A DNA stretch of 54,099 bases from a virus (Duplodnaviria; Caudoviricetes). Of the stretch, positions 4,967 through 47,986 are shown one piece after another. The stretch lies in IMG/VR virus record IMGVR_UViG_3300025102_000038, positions 1 through 54,099 of that record; one strand, given 5' to 3'. Both the position numbers and the translations under genes were made by a program. The first letter of the stretch is position 1. Every line of letters begins with the position of its first letter. The notes below the pieces were generated by a model. It made no database searches and was not told where the DNA came from. It saw only the letters and a list, made by a program, of their open reading frames with translations.

Positions 4967-6309
4967 GTTTAGGTGGATTTGCAGGTGGTATGGCATCAGC
5001 TTTTCAGAAGGCTATTGATAGAGAGCAAGAAGAAAAGATGGAAGCAAAAAGAGAAAAGGCAGCACAGCTACGTCAGGCTGCATCTTTTGCTCACTCTGAA
5101 AAGCTATACACTCGTAGGCTTATGGACGATGAAAGAAAGAGCCTTAGAGAAACAGAGCAAGGACTAAAAGCATTATTTGGATCAGGTCCTGACTCTTTAC
5201 CTTATGTGCAAGCATGGATGGGAATGGGTGGTGCAGGTATAGAACAGTTAAAAGAATTAAAAGAATTTGCCAAAGAAAAAAGAGTGCCATTTAAATCTTA
5301 CTTAGATCTGAGCTATCCTATAAACGATGAGACAGGGGAGTTGTTTACTCAAGAAAATTATGGTGCTATAAATTTAAATAACACCATAGAAACAATGATA
5401 AAGAGAAGGGTTGGCGATGATCCAAACGCAGCATTTGTTCGACCACAAATAGGTGGTGTAATAAAAGATTATGAAAAAGACTATTCTATATATAATCTGT
5501 CCTATGATGAAGTTAACGTAGAAATAGCAAGAGTCATGGATAACATTTCATTAGCAGAACAAGATAATAGCCCTGCGTTAGAGCTTAATAAAGAATTAGA
5601 AAATCTTAGAGCTTGGAGAAAAACTATATTAAGGAATAAAAGAGATATGGCTATAAACCAAGAGACAGCAGGAGATTCTGCTTCTGCTAAGAATGTTGTA
5701 AGAAGAGATGTTAACTCTTTATTAGACTCAGCTATACCTGATTCTAATATGAAACTAGGACTTGAAGCAGGAACTTTTTTAACTATGGAGGGTGATAGAA
5801 ATAGATATATAGATGCCTTTAACAGAGTCATAACAGAAATGGGTGATCCACAGGGGGGTATATATAGCGTCTATAAAGAGGGACAAAGAGAAGGTGTTAG
5901 TGGTGTAACACTTTTTAATGCTGCTTTAATACAGATGAACACAGTCGTATCAAGAAAAAATAGTTTAATGGAGCAAATGATTTCAGAATCCAAAGCAATG
6001 GACATTACAGGAACAGATGCAATTAGAGTTATAACAAAAACTTATGATCCAGAAAATAAAGATATTCATAATGATAAAATTGGAAAAGTTATAGCGATTC
6101 AATATGATGCAGAAGCAACACCTACGTATAAAATATTAAAGGGTATTAATCCTGCAAAGGCAACGGATGAAGCTGCGGCTAGAGCCAAAGCCAAACAAAT
6201 ACATGGTGATAACTACACTGAAAAACAATGGATTGCAGAATATAATCCATACGGAATGTTTTTTTACAAACAAAGTTCTAGGTTTACCATAGATGGTCCG
6301 GGTAAATAG
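4963..6309 (+). CDS. probable internal virion protein
   Basis: Gly-rich amphipathic N-terminus (MSLGGFAGGMASAF) then coiled coil; operon position. Confidence 0.6.
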   Translation: MSLGGFAGGMASAFQKAIDREQEEKMEAKREKAAQLRQAASFAHSEKLYTRRLMDDERKSLRETEQGLKALFGSGPDSLPYVQAWMGMGGAGIEQLKELKEFAKEKRVPFKSYLDLSYPINDETGELFTQENYGAINLNNTIETMIKRRVGDDPNAAFVRPQIGGVIKDYEKDYSIYNLSYDEVNVEIARVMDNISLAEQDNSPALELNKELENLRAWRKTILRNKRDMAINQETAGDSASAKNVVRRDVNSLLDSAIPDSNMKLGLEAGTFLTMEGDRNRYIDAFNRVITEMGDPQGGIYSVYKEGQREGVSGVTLFNAALIQMNTVVSRKNSLMEQMISESKAMDITGTDAIRVITKTYDPENKDIHNDKIGKVIAIQYDAEATPTYKILKGINPAKATDEAAARAKAKQIHGDNYTEKQWIAEYNPYGMFFYKQSSRFTIDGPGK

Positions 6310-6320
6310 GTATATAACAC

Positions 6321-9300: not shown

Positions 9301-10331
9301 CAAAAGAAGCTTTCTTTGAAACATTCCCTCTAAGAGAAGCTCTTGAAACATTTGCAGGTTCTAATTTTAGAACTGGTGTAGCAGGTAATTTTGTAGATGA
9401 GTTTGCAAAACTACTTACAGAACAAGATGTAACACAGGGAGAAAGACTTACTGATGCAGGTGTGGCTGCTTTTTCAGAATACCTTGCATCTTGGGCAGTG
9501 CCTATGAACCAAGTTATAGATGCACAAAGAGCTTTAGAAGCTAGAGGTACAGTCTATAAAGAGACTTCTAAAGATCCTGAAATTTTAAATTTGGGTAGCA
9601 CTGCTTTAGAAGCATTTACAAAACCTTTTAGAAGACTAGACCCAACAGGTATATTAGTTAATGAAGAAGAGTTACCTGTAAAAGAAGATATATTCCAAGA
9701 GACAAAAGAACGTAAAGGATCTTTATACAAAGTTCTTACTGGTATAAATATGTATAGTGAAGAAAGTGATGTAGGTAAAAAACTTATATCTTTGGGTCTG
9801 ACCAAGTGGGATCTACAAAGTAAATCAAAGATACCTACAATAAAAAATTATGAGAACAAAATTATAAGAGAAAACTTAGATAAGGTACTGGCAGTAGCAG
9901 AAAGATATGCTGACATTGCAGGTAGAGAGTATGAAAGCAGAAGGGATGAGTTGTCCTCAGGATTCTTTGGGGGTATCAGCAAAAAGAAATTTGTAAACAT
10001 GCGAATAAAAGATCAAGTAATAAAGCAAGTAGATAGCCTAAGAGGAGATCCTAGAAATCTGTCTGTTATTGATGACAAGAGTAAAAGAATAGACTTGTTT
10101 TTACAGAGAGAGTATAGAAGGCTACCTACAAATGTAAAAACACAAGCCTATTATAAATTTAAAGGAAGGTATGACAGATTTCCGTTTGCCTTTACTAAAG
10201 ACTACTTTAGATCTCGATATCAAAACTATGATACATACACACAGGAGCAGAAGGATAGGGTGAAAGCTAGAGAAAAACAAAGAGATTTAAATAACCTAAC
10301 TGCCATTGGTAAATACATAGCAGGTCAATAA
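6321..10331 (+). CDS. large internal virion/ejection protein (1336 aa)
   Basis: size, helical composition, last gene of the structural arm, FVPFPRF motif. Confidence 0.65.
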   Translation: MDEEDFKMDYNIGGLDTKEQTDTNTNVVDDDDEDFKMDYNMGADEEAPSNQNSSHIKDTSQNSTNEHLTDNDQVPNVEVDVDKNRSLLDLGVDGVKYTAKYAPPDMANFATSPREWSSIPKGMTAAASNIMEFLGDLDQASYKLFGVWTWGGDGDNKWEFTDVLPQWVAPWRTEELKKYYKEENKRGHTFHALANAFDKSQEVFPEEYETGTAGFTFEASRFLTGLKGIEKTFKITKANKFFSKDRFKNMLSGEALTGYIIFGKDDEGLGDMLKLAGLNIPEALTQSGWDDTNDEVWVRRALGAVEGIFTGALLDSELYKGIGSVVKLVKGKEKAIKEKVKTGTISDETNKEIDDAMEEIESIDVEKGVEQAKTWKLKDDTVSQARKRIEKAQNATANRTNMQRMNNEQVVNKNVGYYNNLVREFEENLSINKNNGLKRGDDGFFTISNMENNKLVIDKDKITRLRKQILTAKEEKQKYSLSGQIAARSTIEGYEMGEGSIDYILDPDQIGNITADELDALSTRVLDTENIEALTTVAVELKNAYPNKWKNNQSVMENIFRLSTMNELTIAKDHPLWQALDKAGMSFEDFVTAHLGSASEAGRTLQKYSTLSKRLKPKTQKQRQDNMIKRQGWFGTYFRRVENIRRGLLVSQIATAARNLESGLIRSPVESLNNIIEVGLQDIAQGKFFANNRVFQRTTWQDSFANLRYIYSDRELAKGFTDILLNQPELQKFNNQMFNTINEIQVSTGRGSGTATDKVLSKMEDFTLALNAPNRWQDFLLRRATFLGEARRLFRQKMGVDLIEELENGRLKDLLRDAKDLNKTLDQEDGGVSAIELFAEATERALDLTYSSAPEVPLNKSIASFIVNNNLTVFVPFPRFMFKSMELMAENSAGALIVPIRRMIPESLGGQKGGLTQRDYRMISRNLTGGSAIMAATYLQTQKEEGEDYKLLKLDDGTMIDTTPLFPLRQFMFLGKIGREFWRATYDVGEGAAAKEAFFETFPLREALETFAGSNFRTGVAGNFVDEFAKLLTEQDVTQGERLTDAGVAAFSEYLASWAVPMNQVIDAQRALEARGTVYKETSKDPEILNLGSTALEAFTKPFRRLDPTGILVNEEELPVKEDIFQETKERKGSLYKVLTGINMYSEESDVGKKLISLGLTKWDLQSKSKIPTIKNYENKIIRENLDKVLAVAERYADIAGREYESRRDELSSGFFGGISKKKFVNMRIKDQVIKQVDSLRGDPRNLSVIDDKSKRIDLFLQREYRRLPTNVKTQAYYKFKGRYDRFPFAFTKDYFRSRYQNYDTYTQEQKDRVKAREKQRDLNNLTAIGKYIAGQ

Positions 10332-35221: not shown

Positions 35222-36647
35222 AGTACGTGAAAATTTTGCTGTGCAGGAAACACGTAATGTTGTGTTTAAACCAAACGAAGGACCACAAACAGAGTTCTTG
35301 GCAGCTAATGAAAGAGAAGTTTTATATGGTGGATCTGCAGGTGGCGGCAAGAGTTACGCTATGTTGGCAGATCCTTTGCGTTATATGGGACATCCTGAGT
35401 TCAGTGGCTTGCTCTTGCGTCACACCACTGAGGAACTACGAGAGCTTATATTTAAAAGCCAAGAACTGTACCCGAAAATCTGGAAGGGTATCAAGTGGTC
35501 AGAACGAAAGATGCAGTGGGTTGCTCCGTCAGGGGCAAGACTGTGGATGTCCTACCTTGATAGAGATGACGATGTCCTACGCTATCAAGGACTAGCTTTT
35601 AGTTGGATAGGATTTGACGAACTTACACAGTGGGCTACACCGTTTGCTTGGAACTATATGAGATCACGTTTACGATCTACATCATCTGACCTACCTGTAT
35701 ATATGAGAGCTACAACAAACCCCGGAGGTAGGGGACATCACTGGGTCAAGAAGATGTTCATAGACCCTGCACCATACAACAAGGAATTTAATGCAACAGA
35801 CATCGAAAGTGGAGAAGAACTTAAATATCCTGCAGGACACAGCAGAGCAGGACAGCCACTATTCAAACGTAGGTTTATACCTGCTAGACTTACAGATAAC
35901 CCTTATCTCTCATCTCAAGGAGATTATGAAGCAATGCTTCTATCCCTTCCTGAACAGCAAAGAAGACAACTACTGGAAGGCGATTGGGATATTAAAGAGG
36001 GAGCGGCATTCACCGAGTTTGATCGCAAGTTACATGTGGTTGAGCCTTTCCGTATACCTAGTAATTGGGTTAAGTTTCGGGCATGTGACTATGGGTATGG
36101 AAGTTATTCTGCCGTTGTCTGGTTTGCTGTTGCTCCGTCAGAACAGCTAATAGTATATAGAGAAATGTATGTATCAAAAGTGTTAGCAACAGATCTGGCT
36201 GACATGATATTAGATGTAGAAGCAGAGGATGGTAATATAAAGTATGGAGTGTTAGATAGCTCACTTTGGCACAAACGTGGAGATACAGGACCTAGCCTAG
36301 CAGAACAAATGATACTAAGAGGATGTAGGTTTAGACCATCAGATAGAAGTAGAGGAAGTAGAGTTGCAGGTAAAAATGAAATACATAGAAGATTACAGAC
36401 GGATGAATTTACAGAAGAGCCACGCTTGGTTTTTTTTAGCACATGTACTAACATCATTTCGCAACTTCCTGCTATTCCGATAGACAAGAAGAATCCCGAA
36501 GATGTGGACACACAATCTGAAGATCACTTGTATGACGCATTAAGATATGGTATAATGTCAAGACCTAAGTTCAGTATATTTGACTATGATCCTGCAAGTC
36601 GGCAAACGAACTCAATGCCCATAGCAGACGCAACATTTGGATATTAA
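35079..36647 (+). CDS. terL: terminase large subunit
   Basis: YGGSAGGGKS Walker A, GFDE Walker B, TTNPGG, DYG, DH.YDALRY; start may be 35130. Confidence 0.93.
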   Translation: MKKDGRTKLSAYADGQTMPKKRSKKPSKSKKAEQVQETKVVERQPLPEVRENFAVQETRNVVFKPNEGPQTEFLAANEREVLYGGSAGGGKSYAMLADPLRYMGHPEFSGLLLRHTTEELRELIFKSQELYPKIWKGIKWSERKMQWVAPSGARLWMSYLDRDDDVLRYQGLAFSWIGFDELTQWATPFAWNYMRSRLRSTSSDLPVYMRATTNPGGRGHHWVKKMFIDPAPYNKEFNATDIESGEELKYPAGHSRAGQPLFKRRFIPARLTDNPYLSSQGDYEAMLLSLPEQQRRQLLEGDWDIKEGAAFTEFDRKLHVVEPFRIPSNWVKFRACDYGYGSYSAVVWFAVAPSEQLIVYREMYVSKVLATDLADMILDVEAEDGNIKYGVLDSSLWHKRGDTGPSLAEQMILRGCRFRPSDRSRGSRVAGKNEIHRRLQTDEFTEEPRLVFFSTCTNIISQLPAIPIDKKNPEDVDTQSEDHLYDALRYGIMSRPKFSIFDYDPASRQTNSMPIADATFGY

Positions 36648-36648
36648 T

Positions 36649-38805
36649 ATGGCAGAAGATGACAACAATGAAATAACGATGGATGATCAGGTTATATCTG
36701 TAGAAGATGTAGCATCTGATGAGCCTGACCCAACGCAAAGCACAAACATGATATCGTTTATTATGGATAGATATAAACGAGCAGATGATTACAGAGAGCA
36801 AGATGAGCAGAGATGGCTAAGAGCATACAGAAACTACAGAGGTTTGTATGGATCAGATGTACAGTTTACAGAAGCTGAGAAGTCACGAGTATTTATAAAG
36901 GTAACTAAAACTAAAACACTGGCAGCATACGGTCAGATAATAGATGTGTTGTTTGCTAATAATAAGTTTCCGTTGACTGTAGAGCCAACAGAATTACCTG
37001 AAGGTGTAGTGGCTGATGTAAGCTTTGATCCTGCAGAACCACCACAAGTTAGAAACGATGAGATGTCTAGCCCATATGGGTTCAAAGGAGATGGTAAAGA
37101 TTTACCTGCAGGTGCTACACGACAATCTTTGATGGATAATCTAGGTCCTCTTCAAGGTAAGTTTGATGATATAAATAATTTAAAAGAGGGTGTGGGCAAG
37201 ACACCTACTTCTGTTACGTTTAGTCCTGCTATGGTAGCAGCTAAAACTATGCAGAAAAAAATACATGATCAGTTAGAAGAGTCTAATGCAAACAAACATT
37301 TACGAAGCACAGCCTTTGAGATGGCTTTGTTTGGTACAGGTGTTATGAAAGGACCTTTCGCTGTAGATAAAGAATATCCAAACTGGGATGAAGAAGGTGA
37401 GTATTCACCTGTATTTAAAACAGTGCCACAAGTTTCACATGTGTCAGTCTGGAACTTCTTTCCTGATCCTGATGCAAACAATATGGATGAAGCACAGTAT
37501 GTTATAGAAAGACACAAGCTATCACGTACCCAGTTACGTGCATTGAAGAAACGTCCACACTTTAGAGAGCAGGTTATTGAAACAGCAATAGCACTAGGTG
37601 AAAACTATAATAAAGAATATTGGGAAGATGATCTATCTGATTATGCACCTGAACATGCTATAGATAGGTATGAAGTGTTAGAGTATTGGGGTACTGTAGA
37701 TATTGACATGTTAGTTACAGAGCAGGTAGAGATACCACCTGAACTACAAGACTATGATGAAATACAGTGTAATGTGTGGATATGTAATGGACAAGTATTA
37801 AGAATGGTACTTAATCCATTCAAACCTGCAAACATACCTTACATGGCAGCACCCTATGAGCTTAACCCATACAGCTTCTTTGGTGTAGGTATTGCAGAGA
37901 ACATGGATGATACACAAACATTAATGAATGGTTTTATGCGTATGGCTGTGGACAATGCTGTAATGTCAGGTAATCTGTTGATAGAGATAGATGAAACCAA
38001 TCTAGTTCCCGGACAAGACCTAAGTGTATATCCCGGAAAAATATTTCGAAGACAAGGTGGGGCACCCGGACAAGCCATCTTTGGTACAAAGTTTCCTAAC
38101 GTAGCAGGTGAGAACATGCAACTGTTTGATAAAGCACGAGTGCTTGCCGATGAAAGCACAGGGTTACCAAGCTTCTCACACGGACAAACTGGTGTGATGG
38201 GAGTAGGACGAACAGCATCAGGTATATCTATGTTAATGAACGCTGCCAGTGGTGGTATTAAGAATGTTATAAAGAATGTAGATGACTATCTTCTTAGACC
38301 ATTAGGAGAGGGACTATTTAGGTTTAACATGCAGTTCAACTACGACAAAGCTACTAAGGGCGATCTAGAAGTAAAAGCTCGTGGCACAGAAAGCTTGATG
38401 GCAAACGAAGTGCGTAGTCAAAGACTCATGCAGTTTATGCAGGTAGCATCTAGTCCTGCACTTGCACCTTTTGCAAAGTTTCAGTATGTAATACGAGAGA
38501 TAGCTAAGTCACTAGATTTAGATCCCGACAAAGTAACTAACAACATGGATGAAGCCACACTACAGGCAGAGATCATGAAAAAATTTCAGCAACCTCCTCA
38601 AGCACCTACACCTCCTGCAGGAGCAGATCCAAAAGATCCAACAGGAGCAGGTGGTGCAACAATAGGCACAGGTCAAGTGCCTATGCCACAGGAACAAGGA
38701 TTCTCAGGAAATGAACAACAACAACCAAAACAACCCACAAATCAACCTATACAGCAAGCTGAAGCCACTGGTCAACAACAAGGACCACTGGGACAGCTTC
38801 AGTGA
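36649..38805 (+). CDS. portal protein
   Basis: follows TerL; FGTG.MK, FFPDP, RTASGISML motifs; Q/P-rich tail. Confidence 0.88.
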   Translation: MAEDDNNEITMDDQVISVEDVASDEPDPTQSTNMISFIMDRYKRADDYREQDEQRWLRAYRNYRGLYGSDVQFTEAEKSRVFIKVTKTKTLAAYGQIIDVLFANNKFPLTVEPTELPEGVVADVSFDPAEPPQVRNDEMSSPYGFKGDGKDLPAGATRQSLMDNLGPLQGKFDDINNLKEGVGKTPTSVTFSPAMVAAKTMQKKIHDQLEESNANKHLRSTAFEMALFGTGVMKGPFAVDKEYPNWDEEGEYSPVFKTVPQVSHVSVWNFFPDPDANNMDEAQYVIERHKLSRTQLRALKKRPHFREQVIETAIALGENYNKEYWEDDLSDYAPEHAIDRYEVLEYWGTVDIDMLVTEQVEIPPELQDYDEIQCNVWICNGQVLRMVLNPFKPANIPYMAAPYELNPYSFFGVGIAENMDDTQTLMNGFMRMAVDNAVMSGNLLIEIDETNLVPGQDLSVYPGKIFRRQGGAPGQAIFGTKFPNVAGENMQLFDKARVLADESTGLPSFSHGQTGVMGVGRTASGISMLMNAASGGIKNVIKNVDDYLLRPLGEGLFRFNMQFNYDKATKGDLEVKARGTESLMANEVRSQRLMQFMQVASSPALAPFAKFQYVIREIAKSLDLDPDKVTNNMDEATLQAEIMKKFQQPPQAPTPPAGADPKDPTGAGGATIGTGQVPMPQEQGFSGNEQQQPKQPTNQPIQQAEATGQQQGPLGQLQ

Positions 38806-38956
38806 TTATATAGGGTTCTTGATAGTACAGAATCACGCTATTATGGAGCAGACAAACGACTTAGTCACACTTCATAGATCACAAGGTGCTATCGCTATGC
38901 TAAGACGATTACGACAACTAAGGGATCATGTAAACTCCAATGGGTCTACTAAGTAA
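38711..38956 (+). CDS. small conserved protein after portal
   Basis: HRSQGAI..LRRL motif. Confidence 0.65.
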   Translation: MNNNNQNNPQINLYSKLKPLVNNKDHWDSFSDYIGFLIVQNHAIMEQTNDLVTLHRSQGAIAMLRRLRQLRDHVNSNGSTK

Positions 38957-41900
38957 AGCTGTAAAACAGGGATTAATAGACAATCCCCAAATCATTACTA
39001 AGAAACAGGATGAAGTTGCTAAAGAAGCAAAGGATAGGGCTGACTTAAATGCAAACGATCCTAACACAAATCCTGATGTGTATGATGAGCAGATGGCAGA
39101 TCCTAATGTGTCTAAGATCACAGTGCCTGAAGATCCCACTCCTATTCTTGGAAGTATGTATGGAGACTTAGTGCAAACATTTGAGTCCATGCCCTTTTAC
39201 GGAAAAGAGACAATATCAGGAGCAAACTTTGTAGAACAGTTAAATTATTATGTAAAAAATATTCAAGGCAGAAATATACCATTGTATAAATTTATGGAGA
39301 AGCGAGGAGCTTTTAAAAAATTTAGAGACAATCCCAAAAAACAATTTACAAAAAAAGAAATATTAGATTCTTTAAAAGACTTTTCTTCTTTTGAATTTAG
39401 AATAAGAGTGGATAAAGATACATTATACCGACCTCAACAAAGACTACCTATTGATGAGAGTGCAGGAGATTATAAAAAAGTAGGTTATGCTGAAGTAACT
39501 TTACATGCTCCCATAGATAATACTGTACCTTCAATACAAAAATTTGCAGACAAACACTTTAAGGGAAATACTATAGGACACACTAGATCTTCTTTTGTGT
39601 ATAACAATAAAACTAAAGAGTCGGCTGTTATGCCTGAAGAGGTACAAGGAGATCTTTTTCAAAACATTGGAAAAACAGTAGATGTTACAAGAGATAGATT
39701 AACTAACATACCTACATATGATAATTTTCAAGAGACAACTTTGGTTGGTAATCAAACAATGAGTTTAGTAGGTATTAGAGCAGATACTACACTAACTAGA
39801 TCTGAATCCCCTAGTTGGTTTGCTACTTCATTTATAGCACCTACTCGATCTTATAACAACCTAAAAGAAAATTTAAGGCTTGAATATTTTCTTATGGAAG
39901 ATAATGCAATGCTACTTAATAGGATAAAAGAAGGTAGAGTTCCACTAAATGAAGAAGTTGCTAATGCCATAGGAAGAGATAAAGGTATAATGAACATTGG
40001 CTCTCCAGATGCAACAAGCAGGATGGATGAAAACAAAAGTAGATTTATATCACAATTATTTGCTAAAGGTTTTTCACCAAAACAAATTAGAGAAAGGCTA
40101 GAAAAATATTTTTCTAAATCTAGTTCTGAACTAAAAGGTGAAAGTTTAACTGAAAGACAGATACAATCATTTTTAAGAAAAGAGAAACAAAATAAAATAG
40201 ACCATTATAAAGAAGTATTTAATAAAAATTTTATTGGTATTGGAGAGGAAGCTCAAGATATTAGTGGTGGCACTATAACTGCATTTAGTGAGTTACCTAG
40301 ATTAGGTGCATTAATAGATAAATTAGAAAAAAATTATGCAACAGGTTCGGCTGAAAGACAACCTTTTTTTACATTGCGATATATGCAAAGTTCTCTTTAT
40401 GAAACTCTAAGAAATTTAGAACTTGGAGAATCATTTGACGATATAACGGATTTTTCTCAATTTAAAAGTTACGAAAAACTAAGAAAGTTAAATGCACAAA
40501 AATTAAAAGATATTCAAAACACTATGCCTAGAACAATGGTATCTGGTTATGACTATAGAAATCCTAGTGCGATACCTGTATTTATGCAACGTTTTGCTGC
40601 TCATGGTTTTAACATGACAGAGAGAACAGATATGATTAATAGTATTCTTTCTAAATATAATTTAAATTATTTTAGAGGTGCAAATATAAGAAAGGGTCAT
40701 CAAGACGGACAGGTAAATGATGGTGAGAGAGATAGATTTTTAACTGATGGTTCTACTAATTATGCAGGGCAAATAAAATATCCTGATGGTTCTATTAAAA
40801 CTTATATGAATGCCAATGAAAGATTTTTAAGATATTTTGATGAAATAAATGAAGATAGACAAATAGGAGCTTCTACTTGGTCTGACCACCATCCTGAATA
40901 TCAAGAGCATTTAATTCAAGAAGAATTTAAGTTACCTGATTTTGAAGATGCATATCCAAACATATCACAACCTTTACCTTACAATTTTGAAGACACTAAA
41001 AAAAGAATGAAAAAAATTGTTGACGATTTAAATGAACAATACAAAGCTATAAATGAAGCCAGACAAGAGTTTAGCAAAAATTATATGAAAGCTTTTGAAG
41101 AGGATAATTTACATAATATACCAGTAGATCCTTTTGGAGATGCAGGTCCTTTTTCTTATACCCGACTCACAAATGTTACTATGTGGAGAGAGACTAAAAA
41201 TAAAGCAGTAGTAGGAAAAGATGCAGGTGACTATGGACGTTACTATGATGATACAATTAGTCCTCCACAAAAAGAAGTTATATCTACTGACTATGAACAA
41301 AATTTTATAGATAATCAAAATGCTGTTACACAGGAACGAGATGCTTACAATAGAAAAGAAGATGAAATTACAGATTTAGAAAATGATCCACGATTGAATG
41401 ACCCATCTGGTGATGATGGTCTTTCTGAACAACTAGACGAGTTATACAATGATCTATCCGATATAGCACTAGATATAGATAAGGCAGAAGAAAGAATGTT
41501 AAGAGATTTAACAGCAAAAAATATAGGCAATTTTGCTACACTCTTTGACCCTTTTGAACATGTATTTGATCCGAAACAAATAAATGAACTAAAGTTAATT
41601 GACTTTGATGAAATAGTAGATGACTATGGAACAGAAAAAGATCCTAGATTTGGTGCAAGCTTTGTTGCTCATGTAATGCGTGAAGTTACAAAACAAGATT
41701 ATTTAAATGGTTTAAATGATTTTGGTTATACTGTGTTTAGTGAGCTAGATATGAATAGATTAAAAAATACTCTTAGTAGTGTCGAAGCCAGAAAAACTTC
41801 TATGGAATCATATCAAAGATTAGAGGATCTGTCATATAACCCATTAAAGAAAGATGACTATATTACAAAAGGTTTAAACAGGGTTGTAGAAAAAGATGAT

Positions 41901-43718
41901 TTACCTATAGCAGACAAGTTAGACTTTTTGTACAAAATGGTTATTGGGCAAATGATGCTTGCTAAAAAATTAAAAACAAACAAAGTAATCATACCAAATG
42001 CTTCTGAGTTAATTAATTTAAGAGAAAAGCCTACCCCCGAACAAATGGTAAAATTAGGAAGATTTAAGGCTAATAGTAGAGAGTTTAAAAAGGCTGAAAA
42101 AGAGTATGATGAATTAAGGCACACAAGAGCAGATGGTACAAAGTATAGTGATAGACAAAAAAGAAAAGGTAAAGATGATCTCTATAATAAATCAAGAGTA
42201 TTAATGATGGATCTATTAAAGAAAAGATTTGGGGATGATGTAAAAATATATGAGATAAAACAAACTTTTAACAATCCTCCTAGAGAAGTACCTGCAACAG
42301 TTATAGAGTTTAACTTTGACTTTGATCCTGAAAAACAAATGATAAAAATGAAAGAGGGTGGGCTTGTACAGATAGACAATATGCGAGAGTCAATGAATTT
42401 GTTTACAGACCCAAAAGCATTTGGTGATGATGAGTATAGACAAAATGCTATACGAGAAGCTTTGGAAGCAGGTGTAATATCATTTAACTTTAACGAAGGG
42501 GGAGTAACTGATCCTGCACCTAAACCACCGATGATAGATTATATAACACAACAAGACTATAAAGAAAGAGCAGGAGAACTGTTTGAGAAAGATGACTTAT
42601 ATAGAAAGTATCCCAGTTCTTTTTATGCATATAGAAAACAGACGTTTGACTTTCCAGATTCTGCAGAGCAACCTGAGTTTGAAAAGGCTAGTCCAATGCT
42701 AGGTAGCTTAGAGTTTGAAGCTGATGTTATTCCCAAGTTTAGAACTACAGCTTTAGGCAGGCTAGGGTTCTATAGTGCAAGTGATGGCACAGGAATGTCT
42801 GATCCAAAGGTAGAAAAGGTAGACGAAGCTTTTCAAGGATCACAAGGATCATTTCGTCCATCAAATATGACCATAGCATTAACAAATGATCCCGAAGAGG
42901 GAGATAGAATACGAGCTTATAGAAGAATAGTATCAGAAAAAGATCCACTAAGAATACCACCATCCTCGCTTCCTCATCCTGAGTTAGAGAGAATGTACAC
43001 TTTAAATGCAGAAAATCCTACACCTGAACATGAATCTATTCATAGAGCAATATTAATATTACAAAACTATTATGCAAATGATAGAGACTATGTTGTTAAG
43101 AAGTATGGTGAAGAAACAGGTAATGTTTTATTTGATTTATTAAATCCTTCTAGAGATAATAATTATTTTCAACTATCTAATGAAGTATTAACTGAACAAA
43201 ATGATGCCATAAGATCAGGTGCTAAGTTTGATTCTGAAACGTATTTACGAAGAACACTTGGTGAGAGAGATGTAGATTTAAGAAACTATAAAGCAAAATA
43301 TAAAGACATGTTTAACGAAAAAGACTCATTAGCAAACAATATAGATCGCATTGTTAGAGCAGGGGGAGAAGAACCTAGACATATACTAAATAGAATAAGA
43401 GGTAGTTCTAGAGAAGGACATGCAGACATTGTATTGAGTATATTTGATAGAATAACAAAGCAGTTACCTAACTTAGAAGAGTTAGCCAAAGAAAGATTGT
43501 ATGACAGAAATCCTAAAGGTGGACCTACCTTTGATGCAAGAGGAATAGCAAAGGGAAGTTTAGACAAAGGGTTTTATGATAACTTAAAAGTAGACAGAGC
43601 ATCTGGAGAGGAGACAAAAAACTTTCTGCAGAGACAACTACAAAAATTTAGAGATCGAAGAAATTTGAAATCTAATATTAGAGCAAGTGAATCAATGGAC
43701 TTAGGTGGAAGGTTTTAA
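38940..43718 (+). CDS. large multi-module (polyvalent-like) virion protein
   Basis: 1592 aa; H.R...EEVQGD motif; HESIH; internal MKEGG/FNEGG. Confidence 0.7.
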   Translation: MGLLSKAVKQGLIDNPQIITKKQDEVAKEAKDRADLNANDPNTNPDVYDEQMADPNVSKITVPEDPTPILGSMYGDLVQTFESMPFYGKETISGANFVEQLNYYVKNIQGRNIPLYKFMEKRGAFKKFRDNPKKQFTKKEILDSLKDFSSFEFRIRVDKDTLYRPQQRLPIDESAGDYKKVGYAEVTLHAPIDNTVPSIQKFADKHFKGNTIGHTRSSFVYNNKTKESAVMPEEVQGDLFQNIGKTVDVTRDRLTNIPTYDNFQETTLVGNQTMSLVGIRADTTLTRSESPSWFATSFIAPTRSYNNLKENLRLEYFLMEDNAMLLNRIKEGRVPLNEEVANAIGRDKGIMNIGSPDATSRMDENKSRFISQLFAKGFSPKQIRERLEKYFSKSSSELKGESLTERQIQSFLRKEKQNKIDHYKEVFNKNFIGIGEEAQDISGGTITAFSELPRLGALIDKLEKNYATGSAERQPFFTLRYMQSSLYETLRNLELGESFDDITDFSQFKSYEKLRKLNAQKLKDIQNTMPRTMVSGYDYRNPSAIPVFMQRFAAHGFNMTERTDMINSILSKYNLNYFRGANIRKGHQDGQVNDGERDRFLTDGSTNYAGQIKYPDGSIKTYMNANERFLRYFDEINEDRQIGASTWSDHHPEYQEHLIQEEFKLPDFEDAYPNISQPLPYNFEDTKKRMKKIVDDLNEQYKAINEARQEFSKNYMKAFEEDNLHNIPVDPFGDAGPFSYTRLTNVTMWRETKNKAVVGKDAGDYGRYYDDTISPPQKEVISTDYEQNFIDNQNAVTQERDAYNRKEDEITDLENDPRLNDPSGDDGLSEQLDELYNDLSDIALDIDKAEERMLRDLTAKNIGNFATLFDPFEHVFDPKQINELKLIDFDEIVDDYGTEKDPRFGASFVAHVMREVTKQDYLNGLNDFGYTVFSELDMNRLKNTLSSVEARKTSMESYQRLEDLSYNPLKKDDYITKGLNRVVEKDDLPIADKLDFLYKMVIGQMMLAKKLKTNKVIIPNASELINLREKPTPEQMVKLGRFKANSREFKKAEKEYDELRHTRADGTKYSDRQKRKGKDDLYNKSRVLMMDLLKKRFGDDVKIYEIKQTFNNPPREVPATVIEFNFDFDPEKQMIKMKEGGLVQIDNMRESMNLFTDPKAFGDDEYRQNAIREALEAGVISFNFNEGGVTDPAPKPPMIDYITQQDYKERAGELFEKDDLYRKYPSSFYAYRKQTFDFPDSAEQPEFEKASPMLGSLEFEADVIPKFRTTALGRLGFYSASDGTGMSDPKVEKVDEAFQGSQGSFRPSNMTIALTNDPEEGDRIRAYRRIVSEKDPLRIPPSSLPHPELERMYTLNAENPTPEHESIHRAILILQNYYANDRDYVVKKYGEETGNVLFDLLNPSRDNNYFQLSNEVLTEQNDAIRSGAKFDSETYLRRTLGERDVDLRNYKAKYKDMFNEKDSLANNIDRIVRAGGEEPRHILNRIRGSSREGHADIVLSIFDRITKQLPNLEELAKERLYDRNPKGGPTFDARGIAKGSLDKGFYDNLKVDRASGEETKNFLQRQLQKFRDRRNLKSNIRASESMDLGGRF

Positions 43719-43720
43719 TC

Positions 43721-45745
43721 ATGGAACAGCAACAAATGAACTTATTTGAAGATGGTGGACTACGTGATCAGGGTGGTGGTAAAGATCCTGTATCAGGTAA
43801 CAATGTGCCTGTTGGCTCACTAGAAAAAGAAGTACGAGATGATATACCTGCAATGTTAAGCGAAGGAGAGTTTATTTTTCCTGCTGACGTAGTGCGTTAT
43901 TGGGGATTAGATTTGTTAATGCAGATGCGTCAAGAAGCAAAGCAGGGGCTGAAAAAGATGGATGATATGGGACAGATGGGTAACAGCGAAGAAGCTACAC
44001 TTCCTGATGACATGCCGTTTAACATGGACGATATAGAAACAGGAGATGAACCTTCTTTTAAGTTTAACGTTGGTGGTCTGGCAGCTGATCCACGATTTGC
44101 AACACAAAATGTAAACGTTCCTACATACACAGAAGAAGACAAGAAGAACATGGAAACGGCTGTGCTAAGTGGTATATTCGGTGACATAACCATGAAGCGA
44201 TATGTCAATGCAGATGGTAAAGTTATATACATACCGTTTATTGGAGACAAACCACAAGCACCTGTTCCTGAAGGATATAGCTTAGATGAGTCACCAGTTG
44301 TCTCATCTCCATCTACAACACAAGCTACTACAGATAGTGGAGGTGGTGGTAGCACATACGACCCTGCTCTCTCCCCTCTTGACAGGGCATTGCAACAACC
44401 AGACATGCCAAAGGTAAAGTCTGTTGATATAAATAAAATGTCTCCTGAAGAGCTAGTGGCATATTATGAATCGTTTACTAGCCCGATGGCTAGGTTTGCA
44501 TCTGTGGGTGCAGGGCTACTCTTTGGTCCTCTTATAGGTGCAGGATTAGCTTTAGCTCAACAATGGAGCATTAGAAACGGACCTAATAGTTTTGTAAACA
44601 CAGAGAAAAAACTTGCAGAGTTAATATCTACAGGTAAGCTAAAAGATGCAGGACTAATGAAAAGAATAACAAATGCTAGAAAACTTGCTAAAGAAAATGG
44701 TGTAGGACCTGTAAGTTTATTATCTAAGATAGGCGAAAAATTAGGCTTGTCAGAAGGACCAGATTCTGATATACTATCAAAAGATTTAGCTAATGCTATT
44801 AAGAATGGTGTATTACCTAAAAATGCAGCAGAAATTCTTAATCAAAAAGACGTAATAGACCAAGCTTTTAAAGAGATAGATCCGAAAACTCTTCCTCAGT
44901 CTGGTACATTTGGTACAAAAGTTCAGCCTTCTAATATTGATAGAGGTGATTTTGAAACAATAGGCACTAGTCCTACTAATTTTAATTATGGTGCTGTACC
45001 TGAGTTTGGTGAAGGACAACGTGTACAACCTGCTACAGTTGACTCTGATGCAGATTATTTAGAAGCGAGTGGTGCAGGGACTGCCACCACACTTCCTACT
45101 GAGAGGGCAAAGGTAAAACCAGTAAAATCAGTGTCGGCTACATCATATGATCCTAATAAAGATCCATTTGTTTTACCATCGACTCAATTTGTTCCTGACT
45201 ACGGTTTTGATCCTAAAGATCAAAGGCGAGCTAGGGAAGAACGAATGAGAGATAGGAGAACACTGGGAGATAAATTCTTTGGACCTAAACTTGAGGAAAA
45301 ATTTGGAGTAGCACAAAGTGACAAGATAGATTATACTCCTGCCTACGTTCCAACTTATGATCCTGATGATAAAAGAAGAACTGCAGCAGATTTTTATGAT
45401 CTTCCACAGCAACAGGATGACGATAGAGATGATGGTGGACCATCTTCTGATCCACAAACTTATGGTTCTCCGTTTGATAATACTGGACAAACTACAACAC
45501 CTAGAACTGATACATATGCAGATTTAACAGGTAGTCCTTTTGGAGATAGAGGTAGATCTCAAGCACCACAAACAGTAGGAACTGGTGGTGGTTCAGGACA
45601 AAGATTTGGTCCTACTGGTGGATTCTATGTAGGTGGTGTACCCACTAAACCTATGAAGCCACAGAGACTAAAGAAAGGTGGTTTAGCTAAATCTAAAGTT
45701 AAACCAAAAAGAATGAAGAAGGGTGGACTGGCTTCTAAAAAATAA
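43721..45745 (+). CDS. virion protein with N-terminal DDIPAMLSEGEF domain
   Basis: conserved N-terminal domain, central hydrophobic helix, low-complexity tail, five xxxGG motifs. Confidence 0.7.
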   Translation: MEQQQMNLFEDGGLRDQGGGKDPVSGNNVPVGSLEKEVRDDIPAMLSEGEFIFPADVVRYWGLDLLMQMRQEAKQGLKKMDDMGQMGNSEEATLPDDMPFNMDDIETGDEPSFKFNVGGLAADPRFATQNVNVPTYTEEDKKNMETAVLSGIFGDITMKRYVNADGKVIYIPFIGDKPQAPVPEGYSLDESPVVSSPSTTQATTDSGGGGSTYDPALSPLDRALQQPDMPKVKSVDINKMSPEELVAYYESFTSPMARFASVGAGLLFGPLIGAGLALAQQWSIRNGPNSFVNTEKKLAELISTGKLKDAGLMKRITNARKLAKENGVGPVSLLSKIGEKLGLSEGPDSDILSKDLANAIKNGVLPKNAAEILNQKDVIDQAFKEIDPKTLPQSGTFGTKVQPSNIDRGDFETIGTSPTNFNYGAVPEFGEGQRVQPATVDSDADYLEASGAGTATTLPTERAKVKPVKSVSATSYDPNKDPFVLPSTQFVPDYGFDPKDQRRAREERMRDRRTLGDKFFGPKLEEKFGVAQSDKIDYTPAYVPTYDPDDKRRTAADFYDLPQQQDDDRDDGGPSSDPQTYGSPFDNTGQTTTPRTDTYADLTGSPFGDRGRSQAPQTVGTGGGSGQRFGPTGGFYVGGVPTKPMKPQRLKKGGLAKSKVKPKRMKKGGLASKK

Positions 45746-45817: not shown

Positions 45818-46687
45818 ATGGCAGAAGCAAAAGTAATGGTGAAAGATGCAACACCAAAAAAAGTAATGTCTTTAGCATCTCGTAAGTATTCACGAGATGA
45901 CAAAATACAAAAAGACGAAGAGGAATTAAATCAGTTAATCGCAGAGCAAAAAGGTGAAGTAACAGAAGAGGTACAAGCAGAAGCTGAACCTACATCTGCA
46001 GAGGAGAGAACTTTTAAGAAACGCTATGGTGATCTTAGAAGACACTCACAACAAAAGGAAGCTGATCTGCAGGAGCAGATAAACAGTTTAAAAACACAGC
46101 TTGATGAAGTTACTAAAAAAGAAATCAGGCTACCAAAGTCAGACGAGGACTTAGAAGCATGGGCAACTAAACATCCTGATGTAGCAGCAATAGTTGAGAC
46201 TATAGCCATCAAGAAATCTAAAGAGCAATCTAAAGATCTTGAGGACAGGATTAAAAAAATAAACGAAATGCAAGAATCTGCTACTAAAGAGAAAGCAGAG
46301 GTAGAGCTACTAAAAATACATCCTGACTTTATAGAGATACGTGAAGACGATGAGTTTCATAACTGGGCTGAAGATCAACCTAAGTGGGTACAGCAAGCTC
46401 TTTATGAAAATGATGATGACGCAAAGTCTGCAGCTCGTGCTATAGACTTATACAAAGCTGATAAGGGTATTACTAAAAAGAAAGCAAGCACATCAAAGGA
46501 CGCTGCATTTGCTACAAATACCAAAGCATCACGGTCTAAACCTCAGACAAATGATCAGTCATCATATCTGAGGGAATCACAAGTACAAAAGATGTCAGCA
46601 CAAGAGTACGAGAAACGACAAGAGGAGATTATGGAAGCAATACAGACAGGTAAGTTTGTATATGATGTTTCTGGATCTGCACGATAA
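45818..46687 (+). CDS. capsid scaffolding protein
   Basis: acidic coiled coil, FKKRYGDLRRH, HPDF; directly before MCP. Confidence 0.8.
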   Translation: MAEAKVMVKDATPKKVMSLASRKYSRDDKIQKDEEELNQLIAEQKGEVTEEVQAEAEPTSAEERTFKKRYGDLRRHSQQKEADLQEQINSLKTQLDEVTKKEIRLPKSDEDLEAWATKHPDVAAIVETIAIKKSKEQSKDLEDRIKKINEMQESATKEKAEVELLKIHPDFIEIREDDEFHNWAEDQPKWVQQALYENDDDAKSAARAIDLYKADKGITKKKASTSKDAAFATNTKASRSKPQTNDQSSYLRESQVQKMSAQEYEKRQEEIMEAIQTGKFVYDVSGSAR

Positions 46688-46918: not shown

Positions 46919-47986
46919 ATGGCTTTTCAAACTGCTGCAGGGCATACCAGTTTACCTAATGGTAACTTTAGTCCTGTCATATATTCCAAACAGGTACAGC
47001 TTGCTTTCCGTAAGTCATCTGTTGTGGAAGGGATCACAAACTCTGATTATTTTGGTGAGATTAGTCAGATGGGTGATACCGTTAAAATTATCAAAGAGCC
47101 AGAGATTACTGTAAAAGAGTATGCTCGTGGCACACAAATCACACCTCAGGACTTGGACGATGAGGACTTCTCTCTTACCGTTGACAAAGCAAACTATTTT
47201 GCATTTAAAGTTGACGATATTGAGGAAGCTCACTCACATGTTAACTTCCAATCTTTAGCTTCCGATAGAGCAGCTTATAGACTTTCAGATCAGTACGATC
47301 AGGAAGTTCTAGGCTATCTAGCAGGTTTCAAGCAGTCTGCATTGAACACTGTAGCAGGAACAGCCAACACTACCGTTAACGGTACAAAGGCTGTATCAAC
47401 TGCAGGTTCTAACGAACTACTTGGTTCTATGCTAGTTGATGCCGCTGACTTTAACGGTGGTTCAGCAAACAACTCTATTGTTGTTCAGCCAAGAGGACAG
47501 GGTGACGGTGTTAATACAACAGCTGCTCACGCTACACCTTTAGCTGTCATCAACAGAATGTCAAGAAAACTTGACCAACAGTTTGTTGACAAAGAGGGAA
47601 GATGGCTTGTAATCGACCCAGTCTTTGCTGAATTGCTAAAAGACGAAGATTCCAGAATTATGAATGGTGACTTTGTTTCTTCAAAGGACGAACTCAAAAA
47701 TGGAATGATCTTTGGCAACTTGCATGGCTTTAAAGTGTACATGTCTAACAACCTACCTGCGAAGGGTAATGGTCCTACAGGAGCAACTGCTACTGGATCA
47801 TCACACTACGGAGTTCTTGTTGCAGGACATGGTTCAGCAGTAGCCACTGCAGAGCAAATCAACAAAACAGAGACATATCGTGACCCTGACAGCTTTGCTG
47901 ACATTGTTAGAGGTATGCATCTCTATGGACGTAAAATATTACGACCTGAAGCACTTACTCGTGCTTTTTATGTATCTAAATTCTAA
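46919..47986 (+). CDS. major capsid protein
   Basis: F.P.IYS, GDTVKI, F.D.VRG..LYG.K..RPE; AGGAGG RBS. Confidence 0.92.
   Translation: MAFQTAAGHTSLPNGNFSPVIYSKQVQLAFRKSSVVEGITNSDYFGEISQMGDTVKIIKEPEITVKEYARGTQITPQDLDDEDFSLTVDKANYFAFKVDDIEEAHSHVNFQSLASDRAAYRLSDQYDQEVLGYLAGFKQSALNTVAGTANTTVNGTKAVSTAGSNELLGSMLVDAADFNGGSANNSIVVQPRGQGDGVNTTAAHATPLAVINRMSRKLDQQFVDKEGRWLVIDPVFAELLKDEDSRIMNGDFVSSKDELKNGMIFGNLHGFKVYMSNNLPAKGNGPTGATATGSSHYGVLVAGHGSAVATAEQINKTETYRDPDSFADIVRGMHLYGRKILRPEALTRAFYVSKF

Follow-up and report, generated by a model that had tools for sequence, protein, structure and literature searches.

The 674-residue protein p674 of an HMO-2011-type marine podovirus begins with a conserved module that is bracketed by two xxxGG motifs, recurs within tape measure proteins and forms the one constant part of proteins with varying N-terminal cargo. 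The explanation we tentatively favour, as possible rather than probable, is that this module serves, without catalytic activity, as the handle or junction of a polyvalent virion protein that the phage ejects. The window (the whole stretch of DNA analyzed, 54,099 nucleotides) is the genome of such a phage, with Puniceispirillum phage HMO-2011 and the Roseobacter CRP phages as its closest cultured relatives. The features discussed below are collected in Table 1.

Table 1. Position of p674, its module and associated genes and motifs in the window.
Feature	Position	Strand	Basis
p623, second putative virion protein	2379..4250	+	tandem GG motifs at aa 52-66
Tandem MAEGGY...MQTGGS, p623 aa 52-66	2532..2576	+	alignment A2
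Portal gene, SU10-type; upstream synteny anchor	36637..38805	+	PF23899, E 3.6e-25; phrog_332, phrog_1216
p1592 ORF (1592 aa), detached cargo half	38940..43718	+	blastp to fused homologues
Pre-motif MDLGG, C-terminal in p1592, 15 residues before FEDGG	43695..43709	+	homologue spacing
p674 ORF (674 aa), module-bearing half of putative split polyvalent virion protein	43721..45745	+	ORF list
GG-bracketed conserved module, aa 1-125	43721..44095	+	alignment A1
First bracket FEDGG, aa 9-13, then L14	43745..43759	+	alignment A1
Core DDIPAMLSEGEFIFPADVV, aa 40-58, part common to tape measure proteins	43838..43894	+	PHROG matches, alignments
Predicted helix, aa 55-88, sole moderately confident element	43883..43984	+	AlphaFold2
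Second bracket FNVGG, aa 115-119	44063..44077	+	alignment A1; homologues inspected
Hydrophobic glycine-rich 19-mer, aa 260-278, possible membrane segment	44498..44554	+	Kyte-Doolittle mean 1.75
Basic C-terminal tail, tandem LKKGGL / MKKGGL, ends GGLASKK	45668..45742	+	p674 translation
Scaffold-like gene; downstream synteny anchor	45818..46687	+	phrog_13678 (unknown function), E 2.8e-65
Major capsid protein gene	46919..47986	+	phrog_267, E 5.6e-69

Conservation of the module was examined in alignment A1, which comprises 27 relatives with 60-76% identity to the window sequence. Both brackets named in the earlier note, which had placed the domain at 43721-44080 (residues 1-120), are present in p674 and kept in these relatives, and the feature is not fortuitous. 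The alignment revealed 45 invariant columns, including both glycines of the first bracket (G12 and G13) and the following L14, and F9 is found in at least 90% of the sequences. The second bracket recurs as xxxGG[LFMIY] in the rows whose fetched stretch extends that far and was present in 16/16 homologues inspected. A search for the module family recovered 4002 proteins at E<=0.001 among 4129 candidates, and a profile search recovered 3769 cluster representatives at the same threshold, the best 150 of which all belong to the close family. Across 71 more distant loci the median identity was 66% for the module, compared with 77% for the portal, 72% for the capsid protein and 62% for the scaffold-like protein; the remainder of p674 outside the module was detectable in three of these 71 loci. 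Identity comparable to that of the portal, capsid and scaffold-like proteins, in a protein whose other parts are so rarely recognizable, points to structural constraint on the module. Among six-frame segments of the window (n = 764), the module occurred in one copy only.

AlphaFold2 modelled the module as one helix (residues 55-88, drawn as helices 55-61 and 63-88) in an otherwise extended chain, with a mean pLDDT of 57.6 and a pTM of 0.26, a low confidence that may partly stem from the shallow alignment (27 sequences, Neff 1.6); the block of residues 51-80 reached a pLDDT of 70-76. Judged by this model, the module is non-globular and the absence of a fold is likely. A search of PDB sequences with the A1 profile returned a chance-level match only (a Myb domain, E 0.16), and a homo-oligomer prediction for three copies of residues 1-130 with A1 scored 0.00 against a mark of 0.42 without controls, which we regard as neutral. 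No model of Pfam or NCBIfam covers the module, and for Pfam this applies to its copies inside tape measure proteins as well. As leads only, the nearest clusters in the ESM Atlas were unnamed viral proteins, the structural rows of low TM-score included tape-measure clusters, and a feature match of 0.82 was recorded to a crAss cargo domain.

The earlier note had read the module as a candidate protease or cargo-sorting domain that recognizes or cleaves xxxGG motifs in trans; as a small protease acting on other virion proteins, it would stand in for the prohead protease. Two of the premises held: the p674 gene directly precedes those for the scaffold-like protein and the capsid, and no other maturation protease emerged when the large ORFs of the window were scanned with Pfam and PHROG. 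The enrichment of xxxGG motifs in putative virion proteins would also fit. HMM comparison and structure prediction, both proposed in that note, gave no protease family and the non-globular, low-confidence model described above. At E<=1 Pfam had 0 families for p674 in full length, and at E<=10 nothing relevant for the 27 module sequences; PHROG returned only tape-measure or unknown families for the module, and NCBIfam gave 0 matches. No catalytic set is kept across relatives: D40, S47 and D56 are invariant within the podovirus family, but all three are replaced in lambda gpH and the D56 position varies in other tape measure relatives, leaving P-A...E-[FYH]-V...G as the only skeleton common to the module and the tape measure relatives examined. 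Moreover, tape measure proteins contain the module internally and often twice, which is not how proteases are deployed, and such a motif is absent from the capsid and scaffold-like proteins. The one likeness to prohead maturation proteases is a gene that precedes those for scaffold-like protein and capsid; the module gave no profile match, no globular fold in the predicted model and no conserved catalytic residues. The position itself is better explained as a portal-adjacent slot for packaged minor head or ejected proteins, and we consider a trans-acting protease barely credible.

The resemblance to tape measure proteins claimed in the earlier note was borne out for tape-measure PHROG families and genes, and was weak for lambda gpH alone. 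Members of A1 matched phrog_3547 (27/27, best E 4.2e-5), phrog_5448 (26/27), phrog_6090 (26/27) and a fourth tape-measure PHROG (24/27); these matches are weak but consistent, fall on module residues ~37-96 and are confined to ~60 aa, whereas the profiles have lengths of 1767-3103 positions. By tblastn, 142 phage records showed a match; among the 60 listed, 14 were HMO-2011-type, and 39 of the other 46 fell within genes annotated as tape measure (best E 4e-3). The phages among the matches listed infect Gram-negative as well as actinobacterial hosts. The module HMM (Z = 4 million) detected the 023Pt protein (E 7e-6), the tape measure of Arthrobacter phage Auxilium (E 1.6e-4) and HTVC027P gp82 (E 1e-3), and the module could be aligned to all three. 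The GG-bracketed core was readable in six tape measure proteins and in two podovirus proteins, both of which head gene clusters ending in a structural protein of ~1340-1390 aa. In the tape measure sequence 8zdo_S, a solved-structure entry, two module copies flank an NlpC/P60-like domain.

Siphovirus tape measures that carry '...TSDSIPAMLSNGEFV...' include Auxilium gp19, the protein of Burkholderia phage vB_SBP33 and Gordonia phage Kwekel gp30, with lambda gpH 733-782 as a divergent case. Tape measures and p674 have one layout in common, in which xxxGG and a stretch rich in glycine are followed by D-[DS]-I-P-A-x-L-S-x-G-E-[FH]-V, then by a helix and finally by [FY]xxGG. Compared with tape measures, the podovirus module has a longer loop between the first GG and the core, its helix and the residues from there to the second bracket show greater length and far stronger conservation, and it is placed N-terminally or after enzymatic cargo in a portal-adjacent gene. 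The genome also differs: p674 belongs to a podovirus without tail tube, chaperone or tape measure. As the earlier note had stated, no tape measure gene was found by Pfam and PHROG scans of the window's large ORFs, and the same two libraries gave no tail tube or chaperone match in the genomes scanned. The usual context of a tape measure gene in a long-tailed phage, after the major tail and chaperone genes and with a product whose length corresponds to that of the tail, is absent at the p674 locus, where podovirus genes are found instead (SU10-type portal and adaptor, nozzle-type protein, tail fibres). In the part of the literature covered, HMO-2011-type phages and tape measures are paired in incidental mentions only, and the titles and abstracts of work on conserved motifs of podovirus internal or ejection proteins and tape measure proteins contain nothing on the module.

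Lambda gpH does contain the motif described in the earlier note, reading FATGG (733-737)...PAGIVHRGEFVF...YATGG (778-782). Alignment of module residues 46-76 with gpH 751-782 by hhalign gave an E-value of 0.002 at a probability of 13% over 31 columns, and the module HMM scored gpH at E 170 in a nominal space of 4 million proteins; by these sequence comparisons the lambda similarity would not be significant by itself, and a direct link to gpH appears weak. PF09718 and TIGR01541 gave no match to the module at E<=10 (Pfam) and E<=1 (NCBIfam); in lambda, PF09718 corresponds to gpH 651-701, upstream of the module, and TIGR01541, a lambda-type equivalog model, to 651-813. The cut that yields gpH* lies in a glycine-rich region at about residues 690-710, and the part of the source covered gives neither its site nor its protease as known (PMC12617516). 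FATGG at 733-737 is downstream of this cut, and the gpHC fragment therefore carries the module. In the tail-tip maps as described in the sources covered, the last lambda copy, MRDGG (842-846), lies within residues 818-849, which were built in association with gpI; lambda residues ~690-817 are unresolved and only the last 33 residues of the JBD30 protein were built, so that the module falls in the unbuilt part.

The gene order around p674 is conserved. In the HMO-2011 and CRP genomes the p674 orthologue likewise lies between the portal and scaffold-like genes, and of 80 metagenomic loci, 72 have the portal upstream and 69 have the scaffold-like gene downstream, the rest being cut by contig ends. 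The product of the scaffold-like gene is a putative scaffold by position and composition.

The distance from the portal gene to the module ranged from 165 to 4997 nt in the 80 metagenomic loci. Of 369 proteins, 121 have the start of the module among their first 15 residues and 211 have it past residue 150. A Pfam scan identified recognized domains in 13/16 homologues, all N-terminal of the module: Phage_lysozyme2, SLT, Hydrolase_2, LysM, ART-PolyVal, LPD23, L5_gp82 and SprT-like. No recognized cargo or lytic domain was found by Pfam in p674 itself or in p1592, the product of the gene immediately upstream. In blastp comparisons with fused homologues (36 HSPs at E<=1e-3), residues 1-268 and ~973-1180 of p1592 showed 23-30% identity to the N-terminal portions of these proteins. 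The junction between the two genes (TAA, 2 nt, ATG) is kept in 10/10 close relatives, together with a GGAAGG Shine-Dalgarno-like stretch. A programmed frameshift or readthrough joining p1592 to p674 was rejected: the frames differ by -1, all 10 relatives keep the TAA-2 nt-ATG arrangement, upstream of p674 its reading frame closes after 30 nt and there is no X XXY YYZ slippery site. As a protease candidate, an HExxH motif in p1592 (nt 43029-43043) is at most a lead; it is invariant in 7/7 close relatives, but it gave no Pfam match at E<=10, the AlphaFold2 model was unusable (pLDDT 41.9), comparison by hhalign with the SprT-like homologue P0290 gave no match at this site and no Atlas score reached 0.9.

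In every one of 247 fused homologues another xxxGG precedes the first bracket by 10-19 aa (by 14-15 aa in 163), and across the p1592/p674 boundary the corresponding spacing is 15 residues, placing the split within a conserved spacer between GG motifs. Since p1592 is a separate polypeptide that ends in its own xxxGG 15 residues ahead of the module's, recognition by the module in trans is conceivable, in line with the cargo-sorting half of the idea in the earlier note. GG motifs are also frequent elsewhere. Outside the module, [FM]xxGG[LV] was about five-fold enriched (584 observed versus 117 expected); in the window, GG motifs numbered 12 on the late strand (4.3 expected) and 1 on the early strand (1.9 expected), concentrated in putative virion proteins. 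In an alignment of 25 relatives of p623 that are 30-69% identical (A2), G56 of its tandem motif was invariant and M52, G55 and G64 occurred in at least 90%. We take this enrichment and conservation, along with the position of MRDGG in the gpI-associated part of lambda gpH, as support for a function of the motifs. N-terminal GG motifs were also seen in p1336 and p448, relatives of which were found at only 2 and 1 loci, respectively. The basic tail type of p674 occurs in 202/369 family members, with +10 as the median net charge of the final 25 aa. HMO-2011 gp49 and CRP-1 gp49 lack it and carry the two bracket motifs only, a distribution that weighs against the handle explanation. Cutting at tandem GG motifs at extreme C-termini would free tiny peptides only, which favours docking over cleavage.

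Cleavage is nevertheless central to the main rival explanation, which we consider rather unlikely: the module and its upstream GG motifs would mark the cut of a polyprotein that frees the cargo, made by a phage or host protease or autocatalytically in cis, in parallel to the conversion of gpH to gpH* and gpHC and to T5 pb2. It would account for the pre-motif found in every fused homologue, for the module-first proteins (121/369), which begin just past the expected place of the pre-motif, and for the gene split within the pre-motif spacer, a coincidence of boundary and motif that is typical of polyprotein cleavage sites. Natural N-termini, gene split and lambda cut all fall just upstream of the module, and judging from these positions a cleavage site would also give this pattern. 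Extra motif copies near cargo-domain boundaries in fused homologues, the paired modules of 8zdo_S and the presence of the module in gpHC fit as well, and Iyer et al. 2017, in the part covered, argue that polyvalent proteins are processed after delivery. On the other hand, the phages concerned have no protease in common, the module has no catalytic residues conserved across relatives, and the residue after GG is L, V, F or M, not a nucleophile. Tandem motifs that lie 9-16 aa apart, like motifs 2-7 aa from a C-terminus, make poor sense as cut sites, and the lambda cut has been estimated tens of residues upstream of FATGG.

According to the non-catalytic handle explanation, p674 would contribute the unvarying half of a polyvalent virion protein; packaged in the head beside the portal, this protein would be expelled into the host at infection. 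We infer its presence in the virion and its ejection from the cargo domains of homologues and from gene position. The module, comprising a GG motif, a hairpin-like P-A-x-L-S-x-G-E-F-V core, an amphipathic helix and the second GG motif, would serve as a fixed structural handle that folds only on contact with a partner, which may be itself or a conserved virion component, and would hold the hypervariable, largely disordered protein and its N-terminal cargo for packaging and exit. As parts of this system, the [FM]xxGG[LV] motifs that surround the module or occur in the basic tail and in further virion proteins would act as short elements for docking or as hinges. In the lineage of p674 the cargo has become a separate gene (38940..43718), the C-terminal GG motif of which may tether the cargo non-covalently to the module. 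Its carriers, which are tape measures and putative pelagiphage-type podovirus internal virion proteins, would have in common that they exit through the tail ahead of the DNA. The lumen of a tail tube is unlike a podovirus head, which makes it difficult to point to one conserved partner in the virion; given where the module occurs, self-association or a host-side role may fit as well or better.

Such a host-side role, in which the ejected module nucleates oligomers of a trans-envelope conduit or binds peptidoglycan or membrane beside lytic domains, is in our estimate quite unlikely. What tape measures and the podovirus internal-protein candidates have in common is the crossing of the envelope and not their surroundings in the virion, and lambda gpH* and other tape measure proteins have been proposed, in the sources covered, to build a periplasmic channel. 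Many homologues and two tape measures also carry peptidoglycan hydrolase domains next to the module. In p674 a hydrophobic segment follows the module, and HTVC027P gp82 and the 023Pt protein have hydrophobic N-terminal regions rich in glycine ahead of it. However, such a segment follows the module in only 48/346 homologues and is not a family feature, and p674 itself has no lytic domain. Host-facing modules usually diverge with the host, whereas this one equals portal and capsid in conservation among phages that infect different alphaproteobacterial hosts and extends to phages of both Gram-negative and actinobacterial hosts.

A broader proposal, distinctly unlikely in our view, is that the module and the scattered [FM]xxGG[LV] motifs form a shared 'junction code' of tail-exiting proteins, in which the module recognizes a GG strand in a donor-strand-like manner, in cis or in trans, so that cargo is tethered and sometimes cut. 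If true, one mechanism would cover the natural N-termini, the gene split (p1592 ends in MDLGG-RF) and the cleavage of gpH to gpH* and gpHC, and tape measures and podovirus ejection proteins would be linked by descent of a common module.

p674 can be compared with several known systems. Like the polyvalent proteins described by Iyer et al. 2017, homologues of p674 join lysozyme, ART-PolyVal, LPD23, SprT-like and further domains in a single product of a late gene beside virion genes, and p674 is itself encoded between the portal and the scaffold-like and capsid genes. The p674 family differs in that its constant element is a tape-measure-like module and not MuF or MPTase; the several effector or LPD domains, found in 13/16 homologues scanned, are absent from p674 and p1592 by Pfam. 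Neither 'tape measure' nor 'HMO-2011' appears as a term in the main text of that paper. The gene slot directly after the portal is also that of SPP1 gp7 and Mu gpF, in which an anchoring part is combined with variable C- or N-terminal cargo in some lineages; compared with these proteins as they are generally described, p674 has no MuF match in Pfam, and its module is far smaller and not globular.

If the handle explanation holds, an unannotated conserved gene of HMO-2011-type phages, which are among the most abundant marine viruses, would gain a reasoned role as the carrier of variable injected cargo. The module is now defined although it is widespread in tape measure proteins without a Pfam or NCBIfam model, and it provides a direct sequence link from tape measures to putative injected proteins of short-tailed phages. 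It falls in parts of tape measures left unbuilt by cryo-EM and beside cleavage events, and the defined motif set makes both testable. It could also be used as a practical marker in metagenomes for variable anti-host cargo such as lysins and ADP-ribosyltransferases.

Podovirus internal virion proteins (T7 gp14-16 type; SU10 gp20-24) are large, fast-evolving, partly lysin-bearing and presumed to exit through the tail, and the p674 family is alike. Its homologues carry Phage_lysozyme2, SLT and Hydrolase_2 domains, which p674 itself does not, and its gene is found between portal and scaffold, not behind the tail genes; PHROG families of internal virion proteins gave no match to p674 at E<=0.01. 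In the part of Hardies et al. 2016 covered, internal virion proteins variably host the tail lysozyme and cytoplasm-destined domains, and no IVP-D is listed for HMO-2011. A separate cluster in the window, at 2379..10331, resembles a classical ejection-protein set by position and size.

The N-terminal segment of p674, the 674-aa protein encoded downstream of the portal gene, was compared with related viral proteins over its conserved region of about 125 residues, referred to here as the module. The earlier note had read this N-terminus as a tape-measure-type domain and a candidate xxxGG-specific protease or cargo-sorting module, and the residues it quoted were found in the translation: FEDGG at aa 9-13, DDIPAMLSEGEFIFPADVV at aa 40-58 and FNVGG at aa 115-119. 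Alignment of 27 relatives (60-76% identical) revealed 45 invariant columns, including G12, G13 and L14 at the first xxxGG bracket and P43, A44, S47, G49, E50 and F51 in the core, and where the sequence fetched for a row extends far enough, the module ends in a second xxxGG. A relative was encoded in 216 of 221 candidate IMG/VR stretches. A near-length search gave 4002 proteins with E<=0.001 among 4129 candidates, and an exhaustive profile search gave 3769 cluster representatives at E<=0.001. Over 71 more distant loci the median identity of the module was 66%, compared with 77% for the portal, 72% for the capsid and 62% for the scaffold-like protein, and the remaining 540 residues of p674 were detectable in only three of these loci. 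Only one of 764 six-frame segments of the window contains the module. The segment is a genuine, conserved module.

The window is an HMO-2011-type marine podovirus genome. A tblastn search of phage records with the p674 product matched 14 records (11 Roseobacter CRP phages, two Puniceispirillum phage HMO-2011 records and one uncultured Caudoviricetes), with query coverage below 80% in all 14 and most matched only over approximately the first 70-190 residues. The match in both HMO-2011 and CRP-1 was gp49, located directly 3' of the portal, with a gene of 289-290 aa and then the coat gene downstream; the order portal, p674-type gene, coat is the same in the window (see table), and p674 lies before the scaffold-like and major capsid genes, as the earlier note described. 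Across 80 loci the portal-to-module distance varied from 165 to 4997 nt with gene order unchanged. Of the 369 family members fetched, 121 had the module start within their first 15 residues; in the others it was internal, its start lying beyond residue 500 in 127. A tyrosine integrase gene is present, and the phage may be temperate; a temperate state is reported for several HMO-2011-type subgroups in the accessible text of Qin et al. 2022.

Positions of features in the window
Feature	Position	Strand	Remarks
ORF at window start	25-1092	+	matches C-terminal end of tail fibre PHROG
ORFs of 623, 448 and 1336 aa (p623, p448, p1336)	2379-10331	+	downstream of tail-fibre genes; no family match
Tyrosine integrase gene	20187-21275	-	PF00589, E 6.9e-18
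Hydrolase_2 (cell wall hydrolase) gene, free-standing	21546-22064	-	E 3e-25; early/replication region
Phage_L5_gp82 gene, free-standing	25840-26244	-	E 4.6e-27; early/replication region
97-aa lysine-rich ORF	29649-29942	+	no family match
Large terminase	35079-36647		
Portal, SU10-type	36637-38805		PF23899
p1592, 1592-aa ORF	38940-43718	+	
HExxH motif (HESIH)	43029-43043		C-terminal part of p1592
p674, 674-aa ORF with module	43721-45745	+	
Scaffold-like ORF	45818-46687		
Major capsid protein	46919-47986		
Adaptor, SU10-type	49005-49943		
786-aa tail-fibre-like protein	51475-53835	+	bactofilin-like stretch aa 590-640, PF04519 E 2.5e-7, no single domain passing

Pfam and NCBIfam searches with the module gave no match. 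The tape-measure PHROG phrog_3547 was matched by 27/27 aligned sequences (best E 4.2e-5), and three others were matched by 26/27 (phrog_5448), 26/27 (phrog_6090) and 24/27 (phrog_37649), all four over aa ~37-96. Under a permissive threshold, tblastn with residues 9-100 returned 142 records; among the 60 listed, 14 were HMO-2011-type, 39 of the 46 remaining rows fell in tape-measure-annotated genes (best E 4e-3; Arthrobacter, Gordonia, Streptomyces and Burkholderia phages) and two more in a Vibrio phage gene occupying the position of a tape measure. Reading these sequences revealed a common layout of xxxGG, a glycine-rich stretch, D-[DS]-I-P-A-x-L-S-x-G-E-[FHY]-V, a helix and [FY]xxGG, present in Auxilium gp19, Vibrio phage 1.215.A, Kwekel gp30 and vB_SBP33, and in JustBecause gp54 with a weaker closing motif (RSGG replacing [FY]xxGG). 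Lambda gpH carries a divergent form at residues 733-782. When a local HMM of the podovirus family was applied, with E-values scaled to a nominal 4 million proteins, the Auxilium tape measure scored 1.6e-4, four other tape measure proteins ~1-3 and lambda 170; hhalign of the module against lambda gave E 0.002 at 13% probability. The likeness to lambda gpH drawn in the earlier note thus holds as a description; the statistical support comes from other tape measure proteins. The Pfam family Tape_meas_lam_C covers gpH residues 651-701, upstream of the module, and no Pfam model lay over the module in any of eight proteins scanned; p674 fits neither Tape_meas_lam_C, by family model, nor the tape measure proteins proper, by gene context. 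The deposited tape measure sequences of two solved-structure entries, 8zdo_S and 8rk3_A, contain the module, 8rk3_A in one copy. In the sequence of 8zdo_S (1699 aa), copies at ~964-1014 and ~1411-1478 flank an NlpC/P60-like domain at ~1291-1369, which would suit excision or hinging of the lytic domain alike. Residues ~690-817 of lambda gpH are unresolved in the structure according to the accessible text of PMC12617516, and only the last 33 residues of the JBD30 tape measure are modelled. The sharing of the module between tape measure and podovirus proteins would be accounted for by a host-side role in crossing the envelope, a role that we regard as unlikely.

No protease profile in Pfam, PHROG or NCBIfam matched the module or any other window ORF scanned, which agrees with the earlier observation that no maturation protease is recognisable elsewhere. 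The AlphaFold2 model of aa 1-130 was of low confidence (mean pLDDT 57.6, pTM 0.26), with a helix at aa 55-88 and hardly any further structure, and the possible catalytic residues of the podovirus family were not retained in the tape measure relatives. Profile searches, structure prediction and residue conservation all argue against the proposal that the module is a protease acting in trans on xxxGG motifs, which is highly improbable; p674 does not fit the protease kind on profile match or conserved catalytic residues. The data point to a non-catalytic element that gains structure within a complex, because core-virion-level conservation, a constant portal-adjacent position and cargo independence are combined with a probable lack of an autonomous fold.

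Pfam domains were recognised in 13 of 16 long homologues scanned, all N-terminal of the module: Phage_lysozyme2, SLT, Hydrolase_2, LysM, ART-PolyVal, LPD23, L5_gp82 and SprT-like metallopeptidase. Polyvalent proteins have this architecture; the accessible text of Iyer et al. 2017 describes them as products of late genes, for which packaging and injection are proposed. Hydrolase_2 and Phage_L5_gp82 are separate genes in the window and are fused N-terminal to the module within the portal-adjacent protein of other family members; these two domains thus exist both as free-standing genes and joined to the module. In the pelagiphage-type podoviruses HTVC027P and 023Pt_psg01 (local HMM, 4 million scale: E 1e-3 and 7e-6) the module is C-terminal in a 339- or 459-aa protein heading a gene cluster whose last member is a ~1340-1390-aa structural protein, resembling the T7-type internal-virion-protein operon in size and order. 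The closest known things are an uncurated tape measure segment, polyvalent proteins and podovirus ejection proteins; p674, through its homologues, fits the polyvalent or ejected-protein kind. No description of the module in podoviruses was found in the literature searched, and several core genes are left without function in the accessible text of the HMO-2011-type genome paper (Qin et al. 2022).

The putative cargo protein upstream, p1592, had no family match (Pfam, PHROG). Its residues 1-268 and ~973-1180 aligned with N-terminal parts of homologues in which cargo and module form one protein (23-30% identity, 36 HSPs). A further xxxGG precedes the first bracket by 10-19 residues in 247/247 fused homologues (14-15 residues in 163). 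p1592 ends ...MDLGGRF, p674 begins MEQQQMNLFEDGG, and the spacing from MDLGG to FEDGG across the gene boundary is 15 residues; the boundary layout of TAA, two bases and ATG is the same in 10/10 close relatives. The two ORFs are unlikely to be joined by frameshifting, since no slippery site is present and the frame of the downstream ORF stays open over just 30 nt. The p1592 homology, the motif spacing and the kept boundary therefore indicate that a once-fused gene was divided in this lineage, within the spacer that separates two GG motifs. The HESIH motif of p1592 lies in a stretch invariant in 7/7 close relatives and could be a zincin-type peptidase, a kind proposed to process polyvalent proteins; its region gave no Pfam match, no support from hhalign and an unusable AlphaFold2 model (pLDDT 41.9).

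Outside the module, [FMYLIW]xxGG[LVFIMY] was observed 584 times in the 369 proteins compared with 117 expected from shuffles, with extra copies in the tail, close to cargo boundaries and immediately preceding the module. A strongly basic C-terminal tail with tandem copies ending ...GG[LM]AS-KK was identified in 202/369 proteins, including p674 (MKKGGLASKK), and was absent from the cultured HMO-2011 and CRP-1 orthologues. Natural N-termini, the gene split in the window and the cleavage that yields lambda gpH* all fall just upstream of the module, as would be expected of a processing signal, the main rival explanation; the accessible text of PMC12617516 gives the site and enzyme of the lambda cleavage as unknown. 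Tandem motifs 9-16 residues apart and at extreme C-termini would fit docking better than cutting, and a processing signal is somewhat unlikely. The last lambda copy, MRDGG at 842-846, falls in a stretch built beside gpI in the available tail-tip maps. The lambda gene K product carries a JAB-type peptidase domain. We tentatively favour a handle or junction role, in which the module would keep p674 and its cargo inside the particle and position both for exit; the GG motifs would serve for docking or as hinges.

The late strand of the window carries 12 GG motifs compared with 4.3 expected, and the early strand one compared with 1.9. Five are in p674, two in p1592 (plus the C-terminal MDLGG) and one, at or near the N-terminus, in each of three proteins of the 2379-10331 cluster; the scan found none in the capsid and scaffold-like proteins. 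By size and position the ORFs of this cluster look like a classical ejection-protein set. p448 begins MSLGGF, p1336 has YNIGGL at aa 10-15 and p623, a second putative virion protein, ends GLGGT. For the N-terminal regions of p448 and p1336, IMG/VR contains hardly any relatives (1 and 2 loci). The p623 family keeps tandem MAxGG / MQxGG across 25 relatives of only 30-69% identity. The product of the 97-aa lysine-rich ORF starts MVMKKDKMKKKGMAVGGLKK and so has at its N-terminus a copy of the basic GG motif present in the p674 C-terminal tail.
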